From: Chiloscyllium plagiosum
Lineage: Eukaryota
NCBI RefSeq assembly: GCF_004010195.1
Contig: NC_057719.1
Coordinates: forward strand, 35,745,092-35,766,918
DNA length: 21,827 bases
Reading direction: 5' to 3'
A program made the translations under genes and the position numbers. Below are positions 2,955-21,715 of the stretch, one piece after another (the first letter of the stretch is position 1; every line of letters starts with the position of its first letter). A model generated the notes under the pieces. The model searched no databases. It had not been told where the DNA came from and saw nothing but the letters and a program-made list of their open reading frames with translations.

Positions 2955-3054
2955 AGTGATTCCTGATGAAGGGTTTTTGCCCGAAACGTCGATTTTCCTG
3001 CTCCTTGGATGCTGCCTGACCTGCTGTGCTTTTCCATTATCACTCTAATCTTGA
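2955..3054 (+). mobile_element. Short PLE-derived element (family A) with hammerhead motif and 10-bp TSD
   Basis: CATCCTTTAA occurs at 2945-2954 and 3055-3064. The body is shared with 7930-8142, 17011-17210 and 20047-20177. Confidence 0.8.
2959..2994 (+). ncRNA. Minimal type-I hammerhead ribozyme motif (family A)
   Basis: CTGATGA(2963-2969) A GGGT TTTT GCCC GAAA CG TC, with predicted cleavage after 2990. Stem I (attc/gatt) is weak. Confidence 0.65.
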
Positions 3055-3508
3055 CATCCTTTAACATCAGTCAAGTCCAGAGGATTAAGCCTTTAGCAGT
3101 TTCTGTAATATATTTTCCTCAAGTAATAGTTAGTGTTTATTAATAACAATAAAAGGATATTCTATATTCTTTTCTATTTCCTCTCACCCAGACCCCATTT
3201 TGCCACTTGATTTGGTATTTTTTGATTGGCAATCATGCATTCTACTGTGAAGACTGATGCAAAGTATTTAGTTAACTTCTCTGCCATTTCCTGGCTCCAT
3301 TATTATTTCCTGAACCTCAGTTTCTAAAAGGCCTAGGTTCACTTTAGGCTTTCTCTTTTTACATATTTAGATTTTACTATCTATTTTTATATTACTTGCA
3401 AGTTCACCTTAAAAGTTTACTTATTCCCTCTATTATTTTTGTTCCTCTTTAAAAACTTTCCCAATCCTGTGAATTAACAACTAACCTTTGCCCAGTGTAT
3501 GCATTATT

Positions 3509-3720
3509 TTAGAACATAGAACAGTGCTGCACAGGAATGGGTTCTTCAGCCCATGATGTTGTGCTGAACATGATGCCAAATTAAACTAATTCTTTCTGCC
3601 TTTAGTCCATATCCATCTATTTCTTGCACATTCATGTGCTTATCTAAAAGTCCCTTAAATGCCCCTATTCTATCTGCCTCCACTACCATCCCGGAGTGTG
3701 TCCAGGCTCCTACCTGCATT
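3509..3720 (-). mobile_element. CR1 LINE 3' end
   Basis: TAGAACATAGAACA tandem tail followed by the reverse complement of a CR1 3'UTR/ORF2 terminus resembling 8940-9130. Confidence 0.7.
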
Positions 3721-3759
3721 AAAAAAAAAGTTTGTAAAGTGCCTATTTTTAAGATGACA

Positions 3760-4071
3760 TTTTCCTCCCGTGCGACTATTTGTTCTTTCCAATCTGGTAG
3801 TTAGACACACTTTTGTTGTCATTCTCACATTCCAATCACATAATATGAACTAACAACATCCTTTCGTCCCTTGCGCTCCAACCACCACCTACCTCCTCTA
3901 ACTATTGCATAAATGCTGCTCTCTGTACACTTCATTTCAATTCTAATGAAGAGTCATCTAGACTTGAAACATTAACTTGCTTTCTCTCCATGGGTGCTGC
4001 CTGACCGCTGTGATATCCTGCAATTTTTGTTTCCAATACAGGTTCCAGCAACTGCAGTAATTTGCTCCTAC
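3760..4071 (+). mobile_element. Decayed PLE terminal repeat with degenerate hammerhead (3940-3977)
   Basis: CTAATGA A GAGTC ATCTA GACTT GAAA CATT followed by the TGCTGCCTGACC motif shared with family A. The left boundary is approximate. Confidence 0.55.
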
Positions 4072-4199
4072 CCTCTCCTTCCTGCCTGTCCTTTCAAAGT
4101 CATCTATTCCTGAATATTTAGATCCAAGCACTTATCTTCTTGCAATCAATACATAACTAACACAATGGAGGCTTGTGATTATTGGAGATCAATAATCTA

Positions 4200-4460
4200 A
4201 GTTACAGGATAATCATCACAGGAATTCCTCAGGAATTCCAAACACTTTGAGCTGCTTCAATGATCTTCCCTCCAACATAAAGTCAAAAGTAGGGATGTTG
4301 ATTCATCATTGTCCAACATTCAGCACCATCTGCGGCTCCTCAGACACTGAAGCCGTTGATGTCCAGCTATGTGAGCTCCAGGCATTGATCATTTTGAACA
4401 GGAGAAAGTTTCACCATCATCCTTTGTCATTCAATGGTATTACCATGCTGAATCTCCCTG
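4200..4460 (+). mobile_element. CR1/L2-clade LINE RT fragment
   Basis: ORF 4247 begins SCFNDLPSNIKSKVGMLIHHCPTFSTI, a decayed form of FINDLP..IRSEVGMFADDCT around the RT catalytic motif. Confidence 0.6.
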
Positions 4461-5073
4461 AACTTGGTGGTGCCGGTGTTGGACTGGGGTGGACAAAGTT
4501 AAAAATCACACAACACCAGGTTATAGTCCAACAGATTTATTTGGAAGCACTAGCTTTTGGAGCACCGCTCCTTTATCAGGTGGTTGTGGAGAATCAGATC
4601 ATGATCACAGAATGTATAGCCAAATTAGTCCACTGTTATGGAGATGTGATACATTAAACAATTTCAGATCAAATCTTTCTTCTTTTAGAATGGGATATGC
4701 TGGTTTCTGTTGTTGGATATGTAAATCCCAGAACTTCTTTTAAATTGGATTCTCAAGATAGCCCAACTTTTGTAACAATAGGTGTGAAGTCTGTCTGTGT
4801 CCCAATGTCGAGTCAGATTGACAAGTCCTCTGCACAGTTTTACATGGATTCATGCAGTCTTTGAGCAAAATAAAATGTAAATCTGGAAAAACAAGTTGAC
4901 CCCATAAACCTATATGCATGCATGTATAGCAGCGACAGAGTGAGTGTGAGAAAGAGAGAGAGAGAGAGACACAGACAGACTTCACACCTATTTGGAGGTG
5001 CCGATGTTGGACTTGGGTGTACCAAGTTAAAAATCACAACACCGGGTTATAGCCCAATAGGTTTATTTGGAAA

Positions 5074-5109
5074 CACTAGCTTTCAGAGCGCTACCTCCTT
5101 CATCAGGTG
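5074..5109 (-). ncRNA. Minimal type-I hammerhead ribozyme motif (family B), intact core
   Basis: Minus strand: CAC CTGATGA A GGAG GTAGCG CTCT GAAA GC TA GTG. Stem I is CAC/GTG and stem III is palindromic AGCT. Confidence 0.7.
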
Positions 5110-5959
5110 GCTGTGGAGTACAAGATTGTTAAGTCTCTCATCTTTTAGAATGTCAATGTTGGTTTCAGTTCTTTCATCTGTAAATCCCAGAACTTTTTTT
5201 TAAAAAGTTACATTCCCAAGTGAACTTTAACAATAAGTGCCATGCCGTCTCAGATAATGCATTGAAGGTGTGAGGTGCCCTGCGTGAAGTTGTCTGTGCC
5301 CCAATGTTCAAACTGATTCCATTTCTAAAAAAGGGGATGTACAGAACCTTACATGGGTTCATACAGTTTTTGAGCAAAATAAAATAATTCTGCAAGTACA
5401 AATTCACCCCACAAACGTGTGTGTGTGCGCGCGCGCACACACACGCGGGGAGGGGGGTACGAGTGTGAGAGTGTGTGTGTATATGTGTGTGAGTATGAGT
5501 GCAAAGGGGCATAAGTCTGTGAGAGGGTGCATGTGTGGGTGAGAGTATGGAAGTGTATGTGTGAGCATATGAGAGGGGGTCTGCAGGTGTGTATGGGTCT
5601 ATAGATGTGTGTGCGCGCATGTAGTGCGTGGAGTCACTTGTAGTGTGACATGAACCCCAAACCAGACCTTGGATTCATGTCACACTACAAGTGACTCCAC
5701 TGCACTACACACACTTCTACAGACCCATACACTCACACAGACCCTGCCATATGCTCACACATACACAGCCACACTCACACCCACTCACAGACTTCTATCC
5801 CTTAACACTCAATGCCCCCACCCCACACAGACAGACAGAAAGATACACACACACACACACCCCCCTTCAAATGGTGTGGAGGTGCCGGTGTTGGACTGGG
5901 GTGTAGAAAGATAAAAATCACACAAAACCAGGCTATAGTCCAACAGGTTTAATTGGAAG

Positions 5960-5994
5960 CACTAGCTTTCAGAGCCCTGTTCCTTCATCAGGTG
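5960..5994 (-). ncRNA. Minimal type-I hammerhead ribozyme motif (family B), intact core
   Basis: Minus strand: CAC CTGATGA A GGAACAGGGCTCT GAAA GC TA GTG. Stem II is weakened. Confidence 0.6.
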
Positions 5995-6572
5995 GTTGTG
6001 GACACCCGGATGAAGGAGTAGCGCTTCCAATTAAACCTGTTGGACTATAACTTGGTCTTGTGTGATTTTTAATTCTTTAAAGGATTATCTGAGACGACAT
6101 GGCACCTATTGTTAAAGTTCACTTGAGAATATAACTTTTAAAAAAATTTCTGGGATTTACACAAGAATGAACTGAAACAAACATGGCCATTTTAAAAGAT
6201 GAGAGACTTAAACAATCCAGGTCTTTTCAATATATCATTTCAGTTTCATCTGTGTGTAAACTTTTGCTATAAATTCCGTGTCTTACAATCTTATACTCCA
6301 CAACCACCTGATGAAGGAGCAGCACTCTGAAAACTAGAGCTTCCAAATAAAAACCTGTTGGACACTAACCTGGTATTGTGTGATTTTTAACTTTTCAAAC
6401 ATATTGTTTGGAAAGCGGAAGTTCTGGGATTTACATATCAAAGAACAGAAACCAGCATATCCCATTCTAAAAGATGAACGATTTGATCTAAAATTGTTTA
6501 ATGTATCACATCTCCATGACACTGAACTACTTTGGCTATAAATTCTGCGATCATGACCTGATTCTCCGCAAC

Positions 6573-6607
6573 TACCTGATGAAGGAGCAGCGCTCTGAAA
6601 GCTAGCC
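6573..6607 (+). ncRNA. Hammerhead motif (family B), core intact, stem I mostly lost
   Basis: TAC CTGATGA A GGAGC AGC GCTCT GAAA GC TA GCC, with a deletion just downstream. More decayed copies lie at 4548-4582 (-) and 6305-6339 (+). Confidence 0.5.
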
Positions 6608-6779
6608 TTGGACTATAACCTGATGTTGTCAGAATCCCCCCTAGAAAATAATCTAGGAAAACAAGGGTGGGTCTGGTAATTAATTATGAAACCAGGACAA
6701 AGGAGAAGGTTGATCCAACTTCAGGCAGCCAGGATGTGAGCACCACAATAGTAACCATATGGTACGATGAAATGTAAAA

Positions 6780-6995
6780 AGGAGAAAATGCAGAAGAGGT
6801 TTACCAGGATGCTGCGTGGATTAGAGCTATAAAACTAGGCAATAAAAACTCTGGATGGTGGAGACTGAAGAGAGACGGCAAAATTAAGAGAGACGGCAAA
6901 ATTAAGAGATGTGAAGATAGGGTTGATGGTCAGAATCTTCTGCCCCAGAGTTGAAATGTCCAATACTAGGGCAGCATTTTCTCAAGGGCCATACA
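6780..6995 (+). mobile_element. Degraded CR1 ORF2 C-terminal fragment
   Basis: GCAGAAGAGGTTTACCAGGATGCTG (QKRFTRML) and CAGAATCTT..CCCAGAGTTGAAATGTCCAATACTAG are homologous to 8655-8860. Confidence 0.65.
6868..6909 (+). repeat. Perfect 18-bp tandem duplication (2.3 copies)
   Basis: AAGAGAGACGGCAAAATT at 6868-6885 and 6886-6903, then AAGAGA. Confidence 0.9.
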
Positions 6996-7263
6996 GTTTG
7001 GATTATGTTTAAGTTTGAGTCTTTGGGCGTGGAGCTTGAATTTGCTGCCTTTTGAATCAGGTGAGATTTCTATCATCATGAGCCATGGTGGAATAAAGAG
7101 AGAAAAGGAGGTTACAAACAAATGAAGCAGCATACAGAAAACCAGCAACATGGCAATTCACACAGGTAACAGAAATAATTTCTGATTTTTCATGTACATT
7201 ACAGGAAATGTAAGAAGTTGATGTCTTCAGAATTAAACATAGAAGACTGAACAGAAGAAATAC

Positions 7264-7426
7264 CTTTCAAAGGTGGTAATTTTTGCAGCTCCCTGTTGTT
7301 ACTGATATTGAACCTGGAAGAACTCTGACGCTTTTCTTTCTTCACTACTGCTGTAGGTCCAGGAAACTTTATCTTTGTTAACTGTGTAGTTGGAGGGGTA
7401 CTATTGTTGGGCCTCTTGTTTGAGAT
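7264..7426 (-). CDS. PPP2R5C: Internal coding exon of a PP2A B56 (B') regulatory subunit, N-terminal arm: [54 protein letters not shown](D)
   Basis: On the minus strand the acceptor is tttttttttgtag|ATC (AG at 7428-7427) and the donor is AAAG|gtattt (GT at 7263-7262). The exon is 163 nt (54 open codons + 1 nt). The peptide matches recalled human B56gamma-long (..[27 protein letters not shown]) and B56delta ([42 protein letters not shown]). The family call is secure; the gamma-versus-delta call is about 65:35. Confidence 0.9.
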
Positions 7427-7929
7427 CTACAAAAAAAAATGTATTTGAGTCTTGAGAATTTTCATTGATGAACAGGCTAATGATTCAATGTCAAGATCTA
7501 TAAATTCTTTATAGTCCAAATCATTCACAGCATTTAAAATATTGCAGTTCTAATTGTTGTTCAGCTTGCCTTCTCAAAAGCTGCAACTTCTTTAAAGCAA
7601 ACTGACAGTAATTAACAGTTTTTAATTTCAATTGAAATTGAAGCTGATTTCAAGAATATTTCAAATGGTTGGAATGGAAACTAGTAAATGGCAATATTTT
7701 TAATTTTTCTAAAGGGAGGTCAAAACAGCATATCTAAAGTATGAAATCTAACATTAAAAAAGGCTTCATAAATGGTTCAGATCAGGTTAACATCTCCTAT
7801 GGTTATAAAATAAGTGAACATAATACTTTCTGGAATATAATAGATAAATATTTGTCTAAAATAAAGAAAAACTGTTTTCATCAAAACTTAGTACTGTTTG
7901 AAATTGAACAAGCTTTTAACATAGCTGAG

Positions 7930-8142
7930 GAGAAAGTGAGGACTGCAGATGCTGGAGATCAGAGCTGAAAATGTGTTGCTGGAAAAGCGCAGGTCAGGCA
8001 GCATCCAAGGAACAGGAGAATCGACGTTTCGGGCACAAGCCCTTCTTCAGGAAAGAAGAAGGGCTTGTGCCCGAAACGTCGATTCTCCTGTTCCTTGGAT
8101 GCTGCCTGACCTGCTGCGTTTTTCCAGCAACACATTTTCAGC
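7930..8142. mobile_element. Palindromic two-arm PLE family A insertion with 15-bp TSD
   Basis: The left arm (minus, to 8053) and right arm (plus, from 8055) are near-perfect reverse complements. TTTAACATAGCTGAG occurs at 7915-7929 and 8143-8157. Confidence 0.9.
8019..8053 (-). ncRNA. Minimal type-I hammerhead motif (family A), intact core, host-gene sense strand
   Basis: Minus strand: TTC CTGAAGA A GGGC TTGT GCCC GAAA CG TC GATT. The plus-arm copy lacks the first CT of the core. Confidence 0.65.
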
Positions 8143-8432
8143 TTTAACATAGCTGAGATCTACGAAACATTTCTTGCAGTGGCCCTTCTAAATGCTACCA
8201 AAAAGAATTAAAGCATACCAAAACTGCAATATGAAATATACTGACAAGAAACTTTCCAACAATTTGTTCTATATTTGCTGTCATATAATACAAATTTAAT
8301 ATTGACCAACTTAGATGAATATAACATTTGGAACATATGGCAGCAAATATAGATGAACTTAGACAAATCATGAAAATTACAGGAGGTTCAAGTTTACTTA
8401 ATTTTACTGTTAACCAGTAAATCTACCCAAAT

Positions 8433-9135
8433 ATGTTGGAGTGCAGGTTCATAGCTCCTTGAAAGTGGAGTCGCAGGTAGATAGGATAGTGAAGAGGGCG
8501 TTTGGTATGCTTTCCTTTATTGGTCAGAGTATTGAGTCCAGGAGTTGGGAGGTCAATTGCAACTGTACAGGACATTGGTTAGGCCACTGTTGGAATATTG
8601 CGTGCAATTCTGGTCTCCTTCCTATCGGAAAGATGTTGTGAAACTTGAAAGGGTTCAGAAAAGACTTACAAGGATGTTGCCAGGGTTGGAGGATTTGAGC
8701 TATAGGGAGAGACTGAACAGGCTGGGGCTGTTTTCCCTGCAGCGTAGGAGGCTGAGGAGTGACCTTAGAGGTTTACAAAATTATGAGGGGCATGGATAGG
8801 ATAAACAGACAAATTTTTTTTCCTAGGGTTGGGGAGTCCAGAACTAGAGGGCATAGGTTTAGGGTAAGAGGGGAAAGATATACAAGGGACATAAGGGGCA
8901 ACATTTTCACACAGAGGGTGGTACGTGCATGGAATGAGCTGCCAGAGGAAGTGGTGGAGGCTGGTACAATTGTAACACTTAAGAGGCATTTGGATGGGTA
9001 TATGAATAGGAAGGGTTTGGAGGGATATGAGCCGGGTGCTGGAAGGTGGGACTAGATTGGGTTGGGATATCTGGTCGGCATGTTGGGCCGAAGGGTCTGT
9101 TTCTATGCTGTACATCTCTATGACTCTATAACTAT
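8433..9135 (+). mobile_element. 5'-truncated CR1 LINE (ORF2 C-terminus + 3'UTR), frameshifted
   Basis: Consecutive ORFs give VHSSLKVESQVDRIVKRAFGMLSFI / LYRTLVRPLLEYCVQFWSP..LERVQKRLTRML / FTQRVVRAWNELPEEVVEAG. The tail is TCTATGACTCTA. Confidence 0.95.
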
Positions 9136-9172
9136 GTCCATTTTGTCATTTTTCATAAAAGCATTAAAAGTT

Positions 9173-9541
9173 TAGAATCACAAAATCTCTACAGGATGGA
9201 AAGATGACATTTGGCCCATCGGGTCCACACCGACCCTACAAACAGCATCCTGCCCAGACCTGTGCACAGCCCCAGTGCCCTGCCCTATCCCCATAACCCC
9301 ACAATTACCATAGCTAGTCCATCTAACTTGCACACCCCTGGACACTACAGACAATTTAGCATGGCCAATCCACCCAACCTGTATATCATTGTACTGTGGG
9401 GAGAAGCTGTAGCACATGGCAGAAACCCACACAGACAAGGGGACAATGTGCAAACTCGACACAAACGGTCATCCAAGGCTGGAATTGTACCTGGTCCTTA
9501 GCAGTGCAAGCAATGTTAATCACTGAGGCACCGTGCCACCC
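9173..9541 (-). mobile_element. HE1-like V-SINE
   Basis: Reverse complement of the 2467-2817 family (AATTTAGCATGGCCAATCCACC; CACTGAGGCACCGTGCCACC head). Confidence 0.8.
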
Positions 9542-9544
9542 TTG

Positions 9545-9905
9545 ATTTTTTAATACACTCACAGGATGTGGACATCAGTGGTTCGCCCAACATTTATTGC
9601 TCATCCCTAGTTGCCTTGAGAAGGGGCTAATGAGCTGCCTAATTGAACTGCTGCAGACAATTTGGTGTAGGTACACCCACAATGCTGTTCAGGAAAGTGT
9701 TCTAGAATTTTGACCAGAGACGCTGAAGGAGTAGTGATATATATCCAAGTCAGGTTAGTGAGTGGCTTGGACAGCATTTGCAGGTGCTGTTATCATCATG
9801 TTATCTGCTGCTCCTGTCTTTTTAGATAGTACAGGTCATGGATTTGGAAGATGCTGTTCAAGAAGCCTTTGTAAATTTCTGCATTGCATCTTGTAGATAC
9901 TACAC
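9545..9905 (-). mobile_element. CR1/L2-clade LINE 3' end; related plus-strand remnants at ~13930-14080, ~20600-20790 and ~21360-21550
   Basis: GGATGTGG..CATTTATTGCTCATCCCTAGTTGCCTTGAGAAGG..GTAGGTACACCCACAATGCT is the reverse complement of GCACTGTGGGTGTACCTA..CACCACCTTC..CACATCC found at the other sites. Confidence 0.6.
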
Positions 9906-10307
9906 ATTTTCTTTTCTCAAATGCATATTATCAGCATGTGGACATGAAAATTGTTCCTGAATCTATTAATAGTATCTCATACTAGGTACATTCAACATAT
10001 CAGGGTCTTCTTTTTCTTCTATGATCATCAACCTGATTAAGACTAAGAGCAGTGTTGAGCCATGTAAACTTCTGCGAAAGACTGCATGGCTGACTCATTC
10101 AGCAATATTACTACAAGTACCAAAAACAGTGATCCAAGTTTCTATATTTCCCCATGTACACTGAAGTCATGGTGGTGACCAATTAGGACCCAATGAAAAA
10201 TATTCCAATGAGTTATTATTAGTTTTTTTTTTACAATTTGCAGTAGTGATATTGGCCTGTGGTTATCAGGCTAATTGTTCCTTGTAAAGACAAAGCAGGT
10301 TTGATAT

Positions 10308-11026
10308 TGTTGACGGGAAAATCACCAGCATCGGAGTCAGAGTCGGGGTTCAATGACAGAGTTTATTGTACAAGGTGATATCGGAGCTCCAGGGAGAGAA
10401 AGACATCAACAGGACGGTGGTCAGCTGCGAGTCTTCTCTCAACCCATGGCACATGTCAAGATACTTTTATACATTTTCTGATATAATAGGTCAGTGATAA
10501 GGTTATTGTCTCTGTAACATAGTTTGTTTGTTGTAAACATTGCAGAATCGTTGATAGTTTCTATGCAGTCATTGTCAGTTCCAATGCAGCCTTTGTTAAT
10601 TTCAGCACGATCGTTGTCAGTTTCAATGTCTGTGCGGAATTCCATTACTGTGTTATTGGGTGCTAATCTCTCTTTTGGAGAAGGACAATTACTGCAGCCT
10701 GGCTATTAGCACTTTGTTTTGAGTCCATATCAAACTGCTAGCAAACTTTCTATCAAAGGTGTTGGCTGGACCCAGACACTCCAGTGGGCAGTATACGCTA
10801 TTCATGTGTATTCTCTCTCCCACCCACCTTAAACTAATCAATTAGGTTGTGAGTGCATTATGCTGGCATTCTGGTGGCCCCAGGCAGTTTGTGTGTTTGC
10901 TCTGCTGTCGCTCTCCAAATTGTGGTCCAGTGGCCATCTTGTGTGTCAAATGGCCAACTTATGGTTCAGCAGTCATCTTGTGTGTCCATGTGCCTAGTGT
11001 CACCCTGCCCCGTGCTATCTCCCACT
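10308..11026 (-). mobile_element. Probable solo LTR (ERV/LTR retrotransposon)
   Basis: The plus strand begins TGTTGA (CA end on minus). On the minus strand TATAAAA (10471-10465) is followed ~100 nt later by AATAAA (10367-10362), then ~55 nt to the end, giving a U3-R-U5 layout. The far end is imperfect (CCCACT) and the flanks are TGATAT/TGAATAT. Confidence 0.6.
10548..10631 (+). repeat. Degenerate 21-bp tandem repeat, 4 units
   Basis: TCGTTGATAGTTTCTATGCAG / TCATTGTCAGTTCCAATGCAG / CCTTTGTTAATTTCAGCACGA / TCGTTGTCAGTTTCAATGTCT. Confidence 0.75.
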
Positions 11027-12061
11027 TGAATATTAACGCCCATAACCAGTGAGAAATGATCCAAAGTGAAATAGGGATGTGATATTCACCTGCCACTAAC
11101 GGCCTACTCCTTGTATTTTACGGCAGCAGCTATTTGGCTGTGTGCCCCTCCTTGTAGAATCAGGATACTTAATTATTTAAAGTCAGGCTCCCATACTGGA
11201 ATTGAAGGTCTGATTTAAACTTCTGGTATATAAAGGTTTCTTTAGGAAAGTCTACAGTGAAATGAATGAGGGGATGTCTACCCCTCTAAGTAACTGTACG
11301 TGGCCCAAGAGGAATGGCAATTCTCCCAGTCCCTTCAAGAATGCCTTTGACCTCCCTCAGACCAAATTTCACCCAGCACTGTTGACCATTATTCAGTGGG
11401 ACTCTCTTCACTAGGAATCATTAAGAACAGTTTAAGGATCACTTGGCTATAGCTACCTGTCATCAATGTTCCCTCTTATCTGTGGGCCAGAAAACGAATC
11501 AAGAAGTTAACAAATTCATACAGTTCAATAGTTAATATTGGGCTATTGTTTCCTCTTGAAGAGACAAACAAGATTGGTGAAATAAGCAAATTGGTTCATT
11601 GAATCATGCAACACAGGTGGCCATTCAGCCAGTTATAGTTGCATTAGTTCTTCAATGAAGCCCTGGGAGTATATCCCTGGCTGCAACTGTAGTCTATGTT
11701 CACTTTATTTAAACATGCAAACAAGGACAAAGTTATCCAGTTTATTTTGAAGCACCAATCCTTCAGTTACACTCGAAATCGTGTCCTTCCTTGATCTATC
11801 ATAAAGCTGACATGTCTTAAACACTGCTTAAAAGAAACAAATTCCTTGTATCCAGAGAAGTAAGATGTGCTCTAGCTTCACAACCTCAAAATATTTCACT
11901 TTTTCTACTCGTCAATTACTATTTCAAATTTTGCATAATTTGATTGCTGTGATCAGGATGAAACATTGACTATAGATTATACTAGTGTGGTTTATATCTG
12001 TGTGGCCGTGAAATATCACGAACCTGTTGTGGTTCTGTTCGCCGAGCTGGAAGTTTTTGTT

Positions 12062-12101
12062 GCAAACGTTTCGTCCCCTGGCTAGGCAACATCATCAGTG
12101 T
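12062..12101 (-). ncRNA. Minimal type-I hammerhead motif (family C), mirror copy
   Basis: Minus strand: ACA CTGATGA T GTTGCCT AGCC AGGGGAC GAAA CG TT TGC. Confidence 0.62.
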
Positions 12102-12146
12102 TTGGGAGCCTCCTGCGAAGCGCTTCTTTGATGTTTCCTCTGGTGT

Positions 12147-12193
12147 NNNNNNNNNNNNNNNNNNNNNNNNNNNNNNNNNNNNNNNNNNNNNNN
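12147..12193. other. Assembly gap (47 N) inside the left arm of the palindrome
   Basis: Run of N. Confidence 1.
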
Positions 12194-12589
12194 CTTTAGT
12201 GGTTGGTATATTGGGTCCAGGTCGATGTGTTTGTTGATGGAGTTTGTGGATGAATGCCATGCCTCTAGGAATTCCCTGGCTGTTCTCTGTCTGGCTTGCC
12301 CTATGATAGTAGTGTTGTCCCAGTCGTATTCATGTTGCTTGTTGTCTGCGTGTGTGTGAATTTGACTGGGACAACACTACTATCATAGGGCAAGCCAGAC
12401 AGAGAACAGCCAGGGAATTCCTAGAGGCATGGCATTCATCCACAAACTCCATCAACAAACACATCGACCTGGACCCAATATACCAACCACTACAGCGGAC
12501 AGCTGAAACTGACAACCGGAAGCGGCAGGGACAGACCACTATAAACACCGGAGGAAACATCAAAGAAGCGCTTCGCAGGAGGCTCCCAA

Positions 12590-12629
12590 GCACTGATGAT
12601 GTCGCCTAGCCAGGGGACGAAACGTTTGC
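12590..12629 (+). ncRNA. Minimal type-I hammerhead motif (family C)
   Basis: GCA CTGATGA T GTCGCCT AGCC AGGGGAC GAAA CG TT TGC. Stem I is GCA/TGC, stem II is 6/7 bp and stem III is palindromic AACGTT. Confidence 0.7.
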
Positions 12630-13279
12630 AACAAAAACTTCCAGCTCGGCGAACAGAACCACAACAACGAGCACCCGAGCTACAAATCTTCGCACAAACT
12701 TTGAATCATGAACCTCTTATGTTGATTACATACTTCAGAGGATTTCTTGTTTCTGGATTCTGTAGTCTAAAGTCTCTTCCTTTATGTCGCCAAAAAACTG
12801 TCCGAAAGTACTGCCTGTTAATAAGTGCAAGTCTGCAATATCCTTATGATGCCAGATATCACCCAAACAATTGTTTATAATTGTAATCCCTGTGGTACAA
12901 GATCATTTAGCCCTAAAGTTGTATAAAGGCGACATAAAGAATGATTATAGCACAGTGACTAACTACTGTATAAAAGTAGAAAAAGTTAAATGAGGAACTT
13001 TAAAGAAATACACCAAAATCAGGATAAAATGAGCTTTGAAGGAATAGAAGTTTCTTAAGGATCTATGATCGTAAATGGTCTATATTTGTGCCCATCTACG
13101 GATTTGTTTTTCCCCAAAAACACAGGAAATGTGACATTTCAAAGAACTGTATCCATAAGCTATATGGCAAGTAATATTCATGTAATTTCTCTCAAACAAA
13201 TAGCTTGTGAGATTCAATCACTCCAGAAAAATATACAATATACTCCAATTATAATATTGACTTTTTGCAGTGTAGTTAC

Positions 13280-13815
13280 AGTCAGAATCGTATGGAATGG
13301 AAACAGATCCTTCAGTCCAACCAGTCCATGCTGAACATAATCCCAAATTAAACTAGTCCCACCTGCCTGCTCCTAGTCCACATCCCTCCAAACCTTTCCT
13401 AACCATGTACTTATCCAAATGTCTTTTAAATATTGTAATTATACCCGCATCCACCACTTCCTTCAGAACTTCATTCCACACGTGAACCACAGTGTAACTA
13501 AACTGTCCCCATTGTCTTTATTAAATCTCTCTCCTCTCACCTTAAAAATATGCCCCGTAATCTAGAAATCCCCCATCCTAGGGAAAAGACACGTACCATT
13601 AACCCTATCTGTACATCTCATGATTTTATAAATTTATATAAGGTCACCTCTCAATTGCCTATTCTCCAGTGAAAAAAGTTCCAACCTTTCTTTATAATTT
13701 GACCCTCCATACTCTGCAACATCCTGGTAAATCTCCTCTGAACTCTCTCCAGCTTAATAATATCCTTCCTAGAACTGGGCAACTAGAACTGGACACTACT
13801 CCAGAAGAGGCCTTG
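13280..13815 (-). mobile_element. CR1 LINE 3' fragment
   Basis: Reverse-complement similarity to 8600-9130 (ATCCCTCCAAACC.TTCCTA, CCACCACTTCC, TTCCACACGTGAACCAC, CAACATCCTGGTAAATCTC). Confidence 0.85.
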
Positions 13816-14689
13816 TTACAAACGTTTGAAGACTTTATTCACAAAGTATGTGGGAAATAACTATATAATTGACTACATAAATTAAAATACTGAAAATAAT
13901 TTAAGTCACACACATTGTTTACTTGTGCTATCCATGGGGCTAAAATCCTGGAACTTAGCACTGTGGGTGTACCTAGCTCTCATGAACTGCAGTACTTCAA
14001 GATGACAGTGCAACACCACCTTCTAAAGAGTAATTAAGGACGGGAAAACAATGCTCACATCCAGTGATATATCCCATGAAAGTAGTAAATATTAACCAAG
14101 TCATGTATTTCTGATGATCAGATCGTTGCAAACAAGTTGGAGCAGGTGCTGCCATGGGAAATTTTAATTCGCCTATAAAGGATTACATGCAACTTGACTG
14201 GAAATAAAGGTGTGTTTTTCAACTGAAGTTCTTGTTGATGATAAGAGCCCTCAGTCAGCCTTCACTCAGCATTACAAAAGCAGGCCGTTCTGCCGCTTTA
14301 TCTATTCCCCGAAATGTCTGAATTGCTCATTATTTCAAAAATCTGTCTAACCCAGCCTCTGCAGCCAAGAGTAAAACAATGTCAAAAATTAAAAGACCCC
14401 GAGACAAGAAATTACCCCATCTCTTTCCTAAATTATTCTGATACTGAGCCAGATTGCCTTGTGAGGGGAAATATCCCTTCAGCATCTACACTGTCAAACC
14501 TTCCCAGAATGTTTATGTTTCCTTAAGATCCACACATCATTCTTACCATTATGACAGTCACCATCCATCTGTCTTTTTCTTATAACCCTGTGAATAATCA
14601 TCCAAAGCCTCAATCTCCCAACCAACCAATCTCCACCACACTTCCAAGCAGTGTATTACTTGCTCATTTGTGGTAAATAATGTGTATTT

Positions 14690-15075
14690 TTTTTTAAATT
14701 CATTCAGGGATATGAGCATTGCTAGCTGGGCCAGCCTTTATTGTCTATCTCTAAATTTCCTGAATTGAGTGGCCTACTTCTGTCATTTCAGTGTATGGTT
14801 AAGAGTCAAATGCATTGTTAAGAGTATGGGATCACATACTCAGAGCCTGGAGCCAGACCATGTAAGGATGGCAAATTTCTGTCCCTACAGGACATTAGTG
14901 AACCAACTAGGTTTTTTACAAGAATCAACAGTGTTTAGCATGGTTATCAGAAGGCTCTCTATTCTCATTTCAGATTTCATCAAACACAAATTTCACAAAT
15001 GTGAACCCCATGCCCCCAGAACATTATCTTGAGGTTCTAAAGTACTAGTCCAGTGACATTACAACTATGGCTCAA
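14690..15075 (-). mobile_element. Old tRNA-derived SINE sharing its 3' tail with the CR1/L2-clade LINE
   Basis: The tail TTTTAAATTCATTCAGGGATATGAGCATTGCTAGCTGGGCCAGC.TTTATTG resembles 9545-9610. The head is TACTAGTCCAGTGACATTACAACTATG (tRNA-like, reversed). Confidence 0.5.
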
Positions 15076-15271
15076 CATTCCTTCCATGTATAAATATTTC
15101 TGGATTTCAAAATGGAGGCAGATGGATTTGGATCAGTTCTGCGAAGATTTTGTTTTTGAAAAGATCACATCATCAATTTGGAATAGTAACCTAAATAAAA
15201 TAGCTCCAAGGCAGCATATCATTACAGTAGAGTGCTTAGGATGCTAATGGATGAAATCTTTATACTGTTGA

Positions 15272-15934
15272 GTTTATGACAGGAAGAATAAATACATTTA
15301 GAGATCTAGTTTAGTTCTGACATCAGAATAGAGCAAAGACTTTGTTCAAAAGAACCCAGAGCTCTGATAAGGTAGAACAACTTCTCCTAACCTACCAGGA
15401 GAAATGACTAAGTTCAGAGGAACAAGTCACCCAATGGAGTGATTTTCAGTCTGTGGAGCTTCTGAGCCAGGAGATTGTGGCAATAAATCCTCAAATTGCT
15501 AGAACAGAGGAAATTTAATTCATCAAAATTGACAGCAGTTCATATCAGTAGATTCTAGAAGGCACTGATTAAAAAAAAAAGTCCAAGGTAAAGAAACTAG
15601 AAAATGTTAGATTTTAATAGCTGCGGCAAAGGTAATATTTCTCTGTGGTTGAATCTCTAACAGATGACTTTCGGAAACAGGTTGAAACTTTATTTTGATG
15701 CTTGTGATGAGATTTTTTTTTTCACCATACAATTTAGCTTTATTTCCTTCTTTATGTAACAAACTCATGTTCTGTTGTTAAAGAACATCAAGGCTTAAGT
15801 AAACATATTTCAATGACTAAGCACCATGTTAATTAATTGCATAAACTAAATTAAATTAAATTTATGCAAAGTCAAGCCAGGTTTCAGTCTAGCAACTGAC
15901 TTGTGCTGTAGTACCAGCAGCTGGGATCATAACT
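15272..15934 (+). mobile_element. Possible decayed solo LTR
   Basis: The ends GTTTATGA...GGGATCATAAC resemble TGTTATGA...TCATAACA LTR termini. No clear TSD. Confidence 0.3.
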
Positions 15935-16315
15935 TGCATATTCCAACCTTCTACTCTTCTTTTTTAGTCTTCATTTGCTGGCTTCTAAAATTTTCCCAAT
16001 CCTTTAGATTACTAATATTAACAGCACAGTACAGCTTTTCTTTCAATTTGATGCTGTAACTTATTAAAAATTCATCCAGGTAGTCTTTTATAAATGCAAT
16101 GTATTTTTTTTTTTAAAAAAGTATCTCTTTAAATGTCTATTACTGCTAAACTGTTACCTTAACTTTGAATCGATTTTACCAATTCACTTTGGCTAATTCG
16201 TCTTACCTTTGACATTTCCTTTAGTGTTAATGTTCTAGCTTCAGATCCGGTTTTCTCACCCTCAAATTGGACGGAAAATGTTTCCTTCTACCAACCATTA
16301 CTTACTGTAAATAAT

Positions 16316-16592
16316 GGGGTGGCATGGTAGCTCAGTGGGTTCAATTCCACCCTCTGACAATTGTTTGTGTGGAGTTTGCATGGGTTTGCTCCGGTTTCCT
16401 CCCACAGTCCAAAGATGTGCAGGTTAGGAGGACTGGCCATGTTAAATTGCCCATAGTGTTCAGGGATGTCTAGATTAGGTGCATTAGTCAGGGGTAAATA
16501 TAGGGTAGGGGAATGGGTCTGGGTGGATTATTCTTCAGAGGGTTGCTGTGGACTTGTTGGGCGGAAGGGCCTGCTTCCTTACTGGAGGGTTT
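16316..16592 (+). mobile_element. HE1-like V-SINE, internally deleted
   Basis: GGGGTGGCATGGTAGCTCAGTGG/GGTTCAATTCC head and CCCACAGTCCAAAGATGTGCAGGTTAGG core. Confidence 0.8.
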
Positions 16593-17010
16593 TATATATA
16601 TGTTATCTATATTAAAATAACCTGTTCCTAGTTGATTGCAGGAAGCATTTTGCTAACAAACTATCGTGAATATACTTTATAAACTCATCCTCCAGGCTAT
16701 GCTTCCTAATTTGATTTGTCCAATTTATAAGAAAATTAAAATCATAATTAAAACCGTACCTTTTCTACAATCCCCCATTTTTTCTTGATTTATTGTCTGT
16801 CCTTTAGTGTTACTATTGGGGGTATATAAACCATTCCCACCAGTGACTTCAGTCCTTATCTCCACATGAACTGATTCCACATTTTTTTTTCTCCAAGCAA
16901 AGATTGTTTCTACTACAATACTAATTCCAGCCTTTATCAACAGTTCTATTCGAACTCCGTTGCCTTTCTTCCTGACCTTCAAAAATTTTAAATACCCAGA
17001 ATATTAAGGT

Positions 17011-17210
17011 TGAAAAGTGTGGCGCTGTAAAAGTACAGGTCTGGAGGCATCTGAGCAGTAGGAGTGTCGACATTTTGGGCATTAGCCCATCATCAGGAAT
17101 CCTGCTCCTCAGATGCTGCCTGACCCGTTGTGCTTTGCCAGTGCCTCCTGTCTTCCTGTCATAAACTCAACAGTGCTGATCTCCAACATCTGTTGTCCTC
17201 ACTTTCCCTG
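17011..17210. mobile_element. Older palindromic PLE family A insertion with 13-bp TSD and decayed hammerhead (17066-17100, minus)
   Basis: AGAATATTAAGGT occurs at 16998-17010 and 17211-17223. The minus arm reads ATTC CTGATGA T GGGC TAAT GCCC AAAA TG TC GAC. Confidence 0.8.
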
Positions 17211-17489
17211 AGAATATTAAGGTCCCAAGACTTGTCAATGTGCAGTTGAGTCTCTATAATGGCTACCAATCCATTTATCTTTTTATGAATTATGCTTTCA
17301 AGAATCTCAAATCCTGCCATTTTAATAACTTTTCCCTACTTCAATTGCACAATCTCTTTGTTCACACTCTGGTTATCATTAACCTGTAATTGCTCTTTAA
17401 CTTGCCAAATCTGTCCTTATATGATCCCACCAGCAGTATTTAAATTAAACCACACTCGACAGCTCTTTATGACTTGCCAGGATACTGGC

Positions 17490-17752
17490 TTGAAGGTAGC
17501 AGAGAGTGGTAGTGTGGGTTGCTTTGCCGACTGGAGGCCTGTGACCAGCGGTGTACCATGAGGAGCGGTGCTGGTCTACTGTTTTTCATCATTTATATAA
17601 GTGATTTGGATGCGAACATAGGAAGTATAGTTAGTAAGTTTGCAGATGACACTAAAATTGGAGGTGTAGTGGACAGCGAAGGAGGTTACCTCAGAGTACA
17701 ACAGGACCTTGATCAGATGGACCAATGGGCTGACGAGTGGCAGATGGAGTTT
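17490..17752 (+). mobile_element. CR1 RT core fragment
   Basis: WRPVTSGVP* / LFFIIYISDLDANIGSIVSKFADDTKIGGVVDSE..QQDLDQM..WADEWQMEF. Confidence 0.92.
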
Positions 17753-17995
17753 TTAAACAGAAAGAAAATGTACACCTATTTTGTATCTGTTGCAATTCAA
17801 CAAAAATTAATAACAGCCATTCCCTAATTCATTTCTCAGGGCAATGCCTTGACTTAGCAGTCAGTCATCATTAACTGGCACATTCTCCATGGCAACAATG
17901 CTACCAGAGTTCGTTTGCCAACGGAATAGCATTCTCCCCTATACAGTATAAATGCTATTTTTCCTTAATATTATTTCTTGAAAATTGTACTGATG

Positions 17996-18332
17996 GGATG
18001 GAAGAGTGTCTCAGTGGTTAGCATTGCTGCCTCACAGCGTCAGGGACCCAGGTTAGATTTCACCCTCGGACGACTGCCCTTGTCGAGTTTGCACATTCTC
18101 CTTGTCTGCGTGGGTTTTCTCTGGTTGCCTACCACAGTTCAAACATGTGCAGGTTAGATGAATTGGTCATGCTAAATTGCCAATAGTATCCAAGGATTGC
18201 AGACTAGTTGAAAAAAAATGCAGGGTGACAGGGATTGAACGGTCTAGTGAATCTGGGTGGGATGCTCTTTGCAGGATTGGTATGGACCGAAATGGGCCGA
18301 ATGGCCTGCTTCTACATTGCAGGATTTCTATG
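17996..18332 (+). mobile_element. HE1-like V-SINE
   Basis: CTCAGTGGTTAGCATTGCTGCCTCACAGC..GACCCAGGTTAGATT head, V core and GGATTTCTATGA tail. Confidence 0.8.
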
Positions 18333-18687
18333 AGTGCAAGACAGGAGTTTGACAAAAGTTGCTTTTTTTCCAGGAAAAATCAAGGAAGCTTCCAGTAAAG
18401 TGCAGATTAAGGAATGGTGTTTTTTGAGGGGGGGGAAGGTGTTGCAGGAGGAGAGAGACAGAGATATTTGCTTCCACATATAGCAAGCAAATAATGACTG
18501 AACAGGCCAATTTAATTGATTCACTTAAATTGGGGGCCAGAGAAGGTGCAAATTTAAACAGCATGAAATCCTGCTGACTTGTGCAAAATGTCATCATTGT
18601 TGGGATTTTACGTGTAACATGACATGTCACAGAGATACATTTCCCTATTATTAAAAACAGCTGATATGCTGTTAATGCTAGATATTT

Positions 18688-19103
18688 GGTTTACTGTTAG
18701 CATGCTGTCTTGAGTCAAGAGGCTGTGGGTTCAAGTACACCATATTCTATAGCAAGATCTAAGCTGACAACTATTGTAACACCTAACATAAGTTGGCCTG
18801 TCAGTGGTGCTGTCTTTTGAGTCAGCCGCTAAATTTTCAATGCCTTTTCAGGTGGATATAAAAAATACAAAAGGAGCAAGGGAACTTTCACAGTACCTAT
18901 GGCAAAATTTATTCTTCAATCAAACATTAATAAAACAGATCATATCACCATGAACTCATGGCTATTTGTGGAACATTGTTGCATCAAAAGTGATTATTGC
19001 ATTGCCTATACACAATGATGATTATTCTTCATATTAGCAGTAATATTGTTTGGGAATCCCTAATATTGTGAAAGGTATTATTCAAATGCAAGTGTTTCTT
19101 TTT
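18688..19103 (+). mobile_element. Ancient DeuSINE-like (SacSINE1/AmnSINE-type) element
   Basis: tRNA-like head (GAGTCAAGAGGCTGTGGGTTCAAGT), TTCAGGTGGA..GCTATTTGTGG core and a GTGAAAGGT.TTAT..AAATGCAAGT..TTCTTT tail. Recognised from memory and highly diverged. Confidence 0.5.
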
Positions 19104-19426
19104 TCTCTGAAAATGTTGAAATGCTGAGACAGGTTTTACACTATTATGAAATATTGACGAATTAGGGCATATAATTGTGACACAGGAAATAAGCTGCTGT
19201 ATTTCTTAAGACATATAACATGTAGAAATTTTAGCTGCTTATAATGCAAAACCTCTGGCTCATGTCTAATTTTCATGAGAGAATTATATTTACCTACAAA
19301 TCTTCAACACCCTCTATTTCATACAAAACAGTATAGTTTGAAAACAAAATTGAACAGACTAAGCCTATATTCATTGGATTTTATAATAATGAAAAGTTAA
19401 AATTCTTAAAACTAACAAGATCTTGA

Positions 19427-19574
19427 AAAGTATAAAAACAGAAAATACTACAGAAATGCAACATGATATGACTCAATGCCATAGCAGATGCTGCCTGACC
19501 TGCTGGGTTTCTCTAAAAATGTTTTGTATTTAGTTCATTTTCCAGGATCTGCAGTTATTTTGCTTTTATTTGAT
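19427..19574 (+). mobile_element. Decayed PLE terminal fragment without ribozyme core, inserted into an old CR1 3' fragment (~19345-19915)
   Basis: GATGCTGCCTGACCTGCTG..TCCAGGATCTGCAG motif, with GATCTTGA at 19419-19426 and 19575-19582. Confidence 0.5.
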
Positions 19575-20046
19575 GATCTTGAGAGGACAAGATGAAAATT
19601 GGGAGAATGCTTCTTCTGGGTGGAAATGCTAGAAATAGTTTCAACATAAGAGGTCTCCCTTTCACAAAGCTTTTTTCCTTCCGAGAGGATTGTCATTATT
19701 GGAATGCTTTTCCCAGAACAGAGACTGGACTAAATGAATTTACTGAAGGACGAGTTAGACAGATCTTTAATAAACAAGGAAATCAAAAGTTAAGGGGGCA
19801 TACAGAAAAGCAGAGTTAAAACCACAACTAGATCGGCCACCATCATATTGAATGGTACAGCAAGCTCAAAGAGCTGCATAGCCTGCTCCCTGTTTTCAAG
19901 TCTTAATGCTCCTGAGATAATCTAAGAAAAATAGTTCTATACTGGTGAACCACAGCTACGGTTACAAACGATGCCATGACATGCATACCACCAAACTATC
20001 ACAATGGTGAAGAATTTGATTACATGATTTCAACCTAATTCATTTC

Positions 20047-20177
20047 TTCATTTCCTGAAGAAGGGCTCATGCCCGAAACGTCGATTCTCCTGCTCCTTGG
20101 ATGCTGCCTGACCTGCTGCGCATTTCCAGCAACACATTTTCAGCTCTGATCTCCAGCATCTGCAGTCCTCACTTTGT
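20047..20177 (+). mobile_element. Young single-arm PLE family A element with 13-bp TSD
   Basis: CCTAATTCATTTC occurs at 20034-20046 and 20178-20190. The body is nearly identical to the reverse complement of 7930-8053. Confidence 0.88.
20051..20087 (+). ncRNA. Minimal type-I hammerhead motif (family A), intact core
   Basis: TTC CTGAAGA(20055-20061) A GGGC TCAT GCCC GAAA CG TC GATT. Confidence 0.68.
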
Positions 20178-21559
20178 CCTAATTCATTTCATAGCCCACT
20201 TCAAGTTACTGCAAAACTGTACACAATTCACATTCTTCCTCAAAATTAGTGATTATATCTACATGCATTTAGATCTTAAACCCAGCAAACAATAAAAAAT
20301 GTTTTGGGATTGAAAGCATATATTGTATTGCATATGAATTGTGACATTAATATCTGAATTCATATCCTCTATATTGTTTATAATTATGAATGTCACATAA
20401 GATTTCAAGTTGAGAAAGATAATTGGAATAAAATATTGATATATTTATCATCTGCTTACTAATGTAATACTACTGCATGATTACAAATTCAGACACACAA
20501 ATGCTAACCATCTACAATCTTTCATTAAGTACATTTGTTCATTTAGGCTTTAAAACTTTTCACTTCACTACAAGTTATTTTGGCACTCCCTTCCAAATAC
20601 ATGACCTTCACTGCTTACAAGCAGCGGGACCATTATGACTTATAGCCTTCTCTTTCAACCATTTATCTTCCTGACATGAAAATGTCTCACTATTGGGTTA
20701 AATTCTAGGATTCCCTATGTGCACTATGGGTATACGTACATCAGATTGAGTGCAGTAGTTGAAGATCATGGGTTACAACAACATTCAAGCCCGACCACCA
20801 TCTATAAAGCTCAAGTGACCTCCTAAAGGGCAATGACTTTCAAACCCCCCTGCTCCTGGGGTTGGCATAAAAATTAATAAACTAATCAGAGTATTCAATT
20901 TACCTGTCTGATGGAAAATGGTCAAAAGAATTGTAACCCACACTTAACAAGAGCTGCAATTTTTACAAATAAATACATTCCAGAGACACATATGAAGGAC
21001 CATCAATGTATTATTCCACCAGTTAAAACACTAATTTCCTTTCAAACCTGTATATATGCATACAGACAGACACAAAGAAAAAAGAAAAAAAATGGCACTA
21101 TGAGTGGAGGAAAAAAAGGGGGAACAATTCAATGGGACCCATACAAAAGATTCAATGACAAATTTTGTTTGCTTCCGAAGATCTTCTGTTCTTTCATTCT
21201 GTTTCTCCAGGTTCTTTCATTTTTTCATACAAGACTCTGGGCTATTTGTGCAAGCTTGAATAGAAATCATAATGGAAACTTGGAGAGGGAACACACTTGG
21301 ACCATCAGCAAAATTTTTCACTGGTTCATCCAATCACCTTCAAATTCTTCTCCAAGCCACTCACCATCCTGATTTGGAAATATATCACCGTTCCTTCACT
21401 GTCACTGGGTCAAAATCCAGGAATTTCTTCCCCAAGAGCATTGTGGGTTAACTCACGGCAGGTGGACTGTAATGATTCAAGAAGGCAGCACACCATCACC
21501 TTCAAGGGTTAACAAGTGCTGACCAACAGTGATGTCCACATCCCACAAAGAGGAATTTT

Positions 21560-21715
21560 AGAGTCAAAGAGAGGTACAGCACGGAACAGGATCCTTTGAT
21601 CCAACTCATCCATGCCGACCAGATATCCCAACCCAATCTAGTCGCACCTGCCAGCACCTGGCCCATACACCTTCCTATTCATAGCCTCCACCACTTCCTC
21701 TGCAGCCCATTCCAG
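21560..21715 (-). mobile_element. CR1 3'UTR fragment
   Basis: CATGCCGACCAGATATCCCAACCCAATCTAGTC is the reverse complement of 9050-9082. Confidence 0.88.

Follow-up and report, generated by a model that had tools for sequence, protein, structure and literature searches.

We report that a stretch of 21,827 nucleotides from the genome of Chiloscyllium plagiosum (NCBI RefSeq assembly GCF_004010195.1, contig NC_057719.1, positions 35,745,092 to 35,766,918 of the forward strand; hereafter the window, with positions counted from its first letter) carries twelve hammerhead-like motifs, which very probably are minimal type-I hammerhead sequences in the pseudo-long terminal repeats (pLTRs) of three families of Penelope-like elements (PLEs; families A, B and C), and that these copies are 5'-truncated, often folded back and likely inert. 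The PLE origin, at first inferred, is now shown by endonuclease and reverse transcriptase (RT) sequences linked to the motifs. The kind has been known since 2014, and the window copies are new members of that class.

Hammerhead motifs in the window

Using a strict minimal type-I descriptor, CUGANGA-N-stem II (at least 3 bp)-GAAA-paired NN-U-H, eight motifs were found in the window, while 300 dinucleotide shuffles gave a mean of 0.003 and a maximum of 1; without the stem III and UH condition the numbers were 9 and 0.087. The eight belong to family A (2963+, 8050- and 20055+), family B (5106-, 5991- and 6576+) and family C (12098- and 12593+). A preliminary description of this DNA had listed about twelve motifs, and a hammerhead-like motif is present on the strand given at 12 of 12 coordinates; the remaining four fail the strict descriptor, i.e. 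17096- (palindrome changed and G12 replaced by A), 4579- (A in place of both G8 and G12), 6308+ (stem III palindrome broken) and 3943+ (G5 to A). These are decayed copies, with the core present in other copies of their families; specifically, three other copies of the family represented at 3943 retain CUGAUGA. The catalytic nucleotides are consequently not fixed as had been stated, being broken at 17096-, 4579- and 3943+ (the last already flagged as decayed), nor is stem III always a palindrome, since it is changed at 17096- and 3943+ and broken at 6308+. Scanning the window against Rfam gave 23 matches up to an E-value of 10, none of them to a hammerhead family, which we take not as evidence but as a limit of the models for the minimal form.

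The 12 motifs represent approximately seven insertions, and the eight intact ones derive from five. The two C motifs belong to a single fold-back insertion that has a target-site duplication, the five B motifs are contained in one nested inverted block, and five insertions are bordered by duplicated target sites of 10-15 bp. No head-to-tail arrays of short units were detected in the window. The insertions and their parts are as follows:

2955..3054, plus: 5'-truncated end piece of family A (probably Neptune-like); core 2963-2990, predicted cut after 2990
2945-2954 and 3055-3064: its target-site duplication, 10 bp
3943..3973, plus: decayed hammerhead from an older family related to A; stem-loop II of 15 nt, G5 to A, palindrome changed
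4464..6629, both strands: nested tandem/inverted block of family B (probably Neptune-like), likely one complex insertion
4551..4579, minus: family B hammerhead, core broken (G8 to A, G12 to A)
5077..5106, minus: family B hammerhead, intact core
5963..5991, minus: family B hammerhead, intact core
6308..6336, plus: family B hammerhead, stem III palindrome broken
6576..6604, plus: family B hammerhead, intact core
7930..8142: head-to-head insertion of family A; intact core 8023-8050 (minus), second arm from 8055 without CUGA
7915-7929 and 8143-8157: its target-site duplication, 15 bp
12026..12704: fold-back insertion of family C (probably Poseidon-like); hammerheads 12593-12626 (plus) and 12065-12098 (minus)
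12358-12609, plus: open frame, C-terminal part of the family C endonuclease
12015-12025 and 12705-12715: target-site duplication of the C insertion, 10 of 11 positions alike
17011..17210: older head-to-head insertion of family A; core 17069-17096 (minus) broken (G12 to A)
16998-17010 and 17211-17223: its target-site duplication, 13 bp
20047..20177, plus: 5'-truncated end piece of family A; intact core 20055-20082, start 8 nt before C3
20034-20046 and 20178-20190: its target-site duplication, 13 bp

The B block contains the C-terminal end of an endonuclease around 5631-5694, in both orientations, and its flanks look like a target-site duplication that has decayed (10 of 12 agreeing, as read by eye). 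The stop codon of the family C frame lies inside stem II (12593-12609), such that the first half of the core is also coding. Tail fragments related to family A and lacking a hammerhead core are present at 19486-19560 and 17100-17210.

Ribozyme structure across families

A search for the core that did not require any pairing recovered 75, 26 and 13 copies in three main length classes. The stem II pairs were formed in 67-74 of the 75 copies of the 12-nt class, in 23-25 of the 26 copies of the 13-nt class and, the internal mismatch aside, in 9-12 of the 13 copies of the third, and the first pair (10.1-11.1) was G-C or G-U in 70/75, 24/26 and 12/13. The 15.2/16.2 pair was CG in 46 of the 75 copies, with CA (14) and TG (9) as CpG decay; in the other classes it was GC in 21 of 26, and CG (7) or TG (5) among the 13. 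Stem I comprises 3 bp in families B (C-G/A-U/C-G) and C (A-U/C-G/G-C) and is weak in most family A copies (C-G/U-A followed by U.U and A-U), with one A subfamily having a stem I of 4 bp.

Between families stem I, stem II and the palindrome differ while the pairing is kept, in agreement with the expected stem covariation as judged from the pairs; double changes in the 12-nt class were limited to 3 A-U and 3 U-A among the 75 copies. The three sequence-unrelated families have the common core at one position relative to the tail. For family C, the 7-bp stem II first described is instead 6 bp with an internal mismatch, and the stem I GCA/UGC holds at 12593 and is ACA/UGC at 12098. Energy folding of monomers and self-dimers did not return the hammerhead fold beyond stem II.

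The same search also recovered older groups: A-related families, among them the one represented at 3943, which differ in stem II sequence, and in particular some whose stem-loop II variants measure 13-15 nt and which have the tail motif in common (loci L056, L058, L070, L101, L113, L125, L126 and L161), forming a natural series for the study of covariation, and a C-related group in which stem II pairs completely and stem I is different (L133, L152, L159, L052 and L157).

Linkage to endonuclease and reverse transcriptase sequences

Among the hammerhead motifs examined, 41 in C, 50 in A and 25 in B, motifs of a GIY-YIG endonuclease stood upstream on the same strand in 25, 8 and 3 cases, respectively. 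An own-family endonuclease motif lies at a near-constant distance, and a few matches belong to neighbouring elements. For C the distances were 163-175 or 349 nt among the matches listed, and longer C copies extend into the GIY-YIG domain. The eight A matches comprise five distinct loci with family A motifs (IFRLG approximately 275-290 nt or YIGET 435-483 nt upstream), one across a gap and two from neighbouring B or C elements; for B, GFMSHY was present 501 nt upstream at locus L017. Conversely, searching with peptides, 7 of 14 loci with the B endonuclease had a B hammerhead 305-770 nt behind it, and 5 of 10 loci with a Penelope-type RT had an A hammerhead approximately 1.2 kb behind. The motifs had been described as minimal type-I hammerheads of PLEs, and this is supported both by the match to the published consensus (see Discussion) and by the linked endonuclease (A, B and C) and RT (A).

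The Neptune-type linker, CX2-5CxxC, was present in 5/10 A, 2/7 B and 0/12 C copies with gap-free upstream sequence, some of the A and B copies that lack it being truncated or decayed. Judging from these sequence features, families A and B appear to be Neptune-like and C Poseidon-like. The long copies of the three families have no common DNA beyond chance matches of 10-16 nt, in keeping with their description as unrelated. An open frame of 1,091 residues considered as a full family C element was ruled out, being mostly N gap. Separately, L003:132-1148 (minus strand) has an open frame of 339 residues showing RNase H-like retroviral polymerase features.

Ends of the copies

For family A, 217 matches were obtained, of which 187 began within 12 nt of the anchor start and 182 had 300 nt upstream; 16 with an N gap at the end were dropped and 166 were kept. 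For family B, 58 of 62 matches were kept for the 5'-end analysis. Half of the copies in families A and B start at the 5' edge of the ribozyme and not at the cut site: 82/166 A and 30/58 B copies have their 5' end within -5 to +14 nt of C3, a rate per base about six times that further upstream (p 1e-18 for A and 1e-8 for B). Eleven A copies extend no more than 4 nt upstream of the cut, of which only two look clean by eye and the others are deletions or diverged copies. In family C this 5' edge is absent (0 of 12 copies chosen by pattern and 2 of 11 chosen by tail, one of the two a diverged relative).

When the flanks of non-inverted short copies were compared with each other, there was no extension for 27 of 36 A and 10 of 10 B cases and one of less than 20 nt for the other nine A cases, and since the flanks are mostly unique an unseen upstream subfamily does not explain the 5' edge. 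The 5' ends are spread over approximately 20 nt. An inverted arm lies within 250 nt upstream in 82/182 A and 31/58 B copies, with junctions that differ between copies. In both families the 3' ends are bimodal, 30-40 nt apart: in A 67 of 187 end at +90-99 and 73 at +125-134, and in B 24 of 60 end at +80-89 and 16 at +120-124.

The 5' pile-up in A and B may reflect a transcription start at this place or, alternatively, a stop of the RT. A spliced first exon joined at stem I was considered as well, following Drosophila virilis Penelope, where according to the portions of the sources compared the start lies 46 nt before the intron (PMC2377424) and the intron ends at helix I (PMC4209133); this was rejected as the short copies have neither shared upstream sequence nor a single junction.

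Genome-wide load

Exact family patterns occur 86,254 (A), 5,655 (B) and 4,342 (C) times in the 3.56-Gb genome, with 0 occurrences of each reversed control, and a core-only pattern with a 13-nt spacer gave 131,309 matches genome-wide compared to 132 for its control. We also applied the strict descriptor to 100 stretches of 10 kb taken at fixed steps from the 12 first contigs (953,452 non-N bases, small contigs being outside the sample), which yielded 64 motifs or one per 14.9 kb, and to 20 samples beside the window (20 matches in 186,683 bases); the reversed controls of all 120 samples gave 0 strict matches. Extrapolation from the samples gives approximately 227,000 (175,000-290,000) intact motifs per genome. 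The density of one per 2 kb first noted for the window is local only: the eight intact motifs of the window compare with 1.46 expected (p 1.4e-4, the events not being independent).

Decay of inserted copies

Decay was studied in tail-identified copies that extend 4 nt or more beyond C3, 100 of the 166 in family A and 45 of the 58 in family B. The core is intact in 41/100 A and 21/45 B copies. The lethal change G12A and the tolerated C11.1U, which affect the same CpG, are about equally common (16 and 15 of 100 in A; 12 and 14 of 45 in B). In four base-matched comparisons of non-CpG core and tail columns, where selection bias acts on both sides, two gave no difference, one had the core better kept and one worse (see Discussion), so excess conservation of the core was not consistent in the copies. 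Outside CpG sites the motif varies strongly at N7, loop II, stem I and H17, a pattern that selection in the source elements would be expected to give. Together the data suggest that inserted copies decay neutrally, fastest at the CpG sites of the core.

Host gene and RNA

The window was first taken as an intron pair, and one exon was found:

7265..7426, minus: coding exon of the host gene for a PP2A B56 regulatory subunit (gamma/delta-type), E 4.7e-19 to PDB 8u1x_B

Seven further Pfam B56 exon matches lie on the same strand 39-100 kb to the left, the next one approximately 39 kb away; the upstream exon was not found, and an N gap follows the window. The downstream exons look to us more like the gamma isoform, and delta is the best solved match for 7265-7426. 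Because the gene is on the minus strand, minus-strand motifs are sense to the host pre-mRNA. Over the 121.8 kb of the gene we counted 10 intact motifs in sense and 7 in antisense, which are small numbers. In predicted folds of the minus strand, sense motifs were paired with their own inverted arms over 24/28, 34/34, 29/30, 26/29 and 12/29 nt.

On a long A copy, 1,856 reads from both strands were obtained in one RNA run, with a 4-fold step in depth at the core, a step confounded by subfamily divergence upstream; another run gave 0 reads, and a third consisted of contigs. Read ends did not accumulate at the cut site in the 1,856-read run, a weak test as the poly(A) single-cell library is unsuited to cut ends.

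Other repeats of the window

A multi-copy repeat of approximately 300 nt without a hammerhead, found on both strands (2465-2817, 9178-9542, 16387-16611 and 18003-18333), resembles what we take to be a tRNA-derived short interspersed nuclear element (SINE) of cartilaginous fish, and further multi-copy pieces at 8433-9138, 13284-13813, 17484-17752 and 21559-21683 look like 3' ends of a CR1-type long interspersed nuclear element. Positions 10551-10628 hold three degenerate repeats with a 21-nt period within the otherwise unexplained segment 10310-11100.

Discussion

Minimal hammerheads in the pLTRs of metazoan PLEs, including Poseidon and Neptune elements of fishes, were described by Cervera and De la Pena in 2014 (PMC4209133). 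The parts of that paper compared here give a consensus (short stem I, CUGANGA, an extra nucleotide, G10.1-C11.1, GAAA, palindromic 15.2/16.2, UH) that is the same as ours, and likewise several families per genome, mostly lone motifs from truncated PLEs, and opposite-strand pairs 100-700 bp apart; the portion of its alignment compared has no shark row, and a 5'-end pile-up at stem I is not described in the parts consulted. The material seen of Craig et al. 2021 (PMC8557442) defines Neptune by the CX2-5CxxC linker and attributes to the units of endonuclease-positive PLEs strong 5' truncation, partial tandems, an adjacent inverted 5'-truncated copy and an optional tail of 30-40 bp; in so far as it was compared, the shark copies show no difference in kind, with the truncation, the inverted 5' copy and the optional tail all present. 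Within the literature searched, of which parts were seen, nothing was found on shark PLE ribozymes or a 5' pile-up, and a search for shark, Penelope and hammerhead returned PMC6155905 only, where 'shark' in the portion seen denotes a shape.

The closest functional model is PAc, a Poseidon element of Anolis carolinensis with its hammerhead at the junction of pLTR and open reading frame, in which two RT start sites approximately 110 nt downstream of the hammerhead define the tail, both target strands are nicked and extended, the main template is uncut RNA, cleavage needs protein, and RNA-seq shows no ends at the cut site (PMC11167929). Our bimodal 3' ends in A and B match the two RT start sites, and the window pieces fit this scheme in having two tail ends, head-to-head arms and an uncut ribozyme in nearly every copy. 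The two cases differ in that PAc was tested in vitro and ours is deduced from genomic copies, and in that A and B appear Neptune-like.

By analogy with PAc, the element protein would nick the target and reverse transcription would be primed at an internal site 80-135 nt behind the ribozyme, on a template RNA uncut at that ribozyme; in A and B it would usually stop just past the ribozyme 5' edge, and head-to-head pairs could arise by priming from both nicked strands or by fold-back of the cDNA. Only in active source elements would selection maintain the ribozyme, which there would cleave slowly, either as a dimer or with the element protein assisting; copies on the host sense strand should, by prediction, be hidden in duplexes formed with their own inverted arms. 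Given the fit to PAc and the low cleavage of dimers in vitro, as stated in the portions seen of PMC4209133 and a review (PMC6765202), we read the copies as inert insertion products and the ribozyme as one that would function in source elements alone.

The short A and B units could instead be non-autonomous, SINE-like or retrozyme-like, copying themselves from short masters by means of PLE proteins. The very high copy number of the exact A motif, the similar 5' start common to half of the copies, the frequent inverted arm upstream and the RNA reads from both strands would agree with this. Short masters would however not predict 5' ends scattered over some 20 nt, arm junctions that vary copy by copy and short-copy flanks that mostly do not extend, and the same subfamily variants are found in long copies with coding sequence. 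A SINE would have a fixed 5' head derived from a polymerase III RNA and no coding parent, whereas here the 5' ends vary and long copies continue into a coding element; the SINE-like repeats of the preliminary description are instead 5'-truncated ends of coding elements with varied starts and mostly unique flanks. Non-LTR retrozymes, which carry type-I hammerheads related to those of PLE pLTRs and have been reported from one chondrichthyan genome, are head-to-tail arrays of non-coding units in what was seen of the source (bioRxiv 10.64898/2026.07.22.740005), while the window copies are dispersed, single or head-to-head, without short-unit arrays, and the tandem pieces of the B block include coding remnants. 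We consider such self-copying short units unlikely.

It is more doubtful still that the intronic ribozymes are active in host pre-mRNA and selected, for or against, as regulators of PP2A B56 and other genes. Four intact motifs are on the sense strand (8050-, 5106-, 5991- and 12098-), two of them, neighbours of the same family 885 nt apart, could dimerise, and the window is denser than average, with the reservation on independence given above. Against a regulatory role, sense motifs are not depleted relative to antisense ones over the host gene (small numbers), lethal and tolerated CpG changes are equally common, fewer than half of the copies keep the core, sense copies are predicted to lie in long duplexes, and read ends did not pile up at the cut site in the one, weakly informative, RNA run. 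A reading of the motifs as chance matches, or as a side effect of short palindromic repeats, can be given almost no weight: no Rfam hammerhead family was found and stems I and III are very short, but the counts in the window and genome-wide against shuffled or reversed controls, together with three unrelated families having the same core in the same place relative to the tail, already refute it.

Several observations weigh against minimal hammerheads of PLE pLTRs that decay as inert copies. In the A/T columns of family B the core is better kept than the tail (7/315 compared to 60/1027 changes, p 0.008), and in the C/G columns of family A it is worse kept (p 0.004), there near the truncation edge. 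The lowest-energy form of two folded copies is not a hammerhead dimer. Pfam matched GIY-YIG in family C with an E-value of 0.07, below the cut-off, and recognised neither the endonuclease nor the RT fragment of family A, nor the peptide from the window, and the protein assignments are made from motifs, named by us, that are regarded as characteristic of PLEs. RT sequence is linked to family A only, by motifs at 5 of 10 loci, none having been traced for B or C, and no unbroken full-length element was found in this assembly with its many N gaps. We nevertheless regard hammerhead sequences of truncated and likely inert PLE copies as the very probable explanation.

The function of PLE hammerheads is still called unclear (PMC8557442, in the portion seen). 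That copies start at the 5' edge of the ribozyme and almost never at its cut site provides genomic support for the in vitro finding that uncut RNA is the template. The window adds three more families to a published class, and the load of this genome is at least 131,309 copies by one pattern, where the passages compared of PMC4209133 call approximately 4,000 copies in coelacanth and 9,000 in Xenopus remarkable; the intact ones, approximately 200,000, would be more than 20 times the published high mark. With a load so far above these numbers, the genome of C. plagiosum constitutes a large natural mutational data set for the motif.

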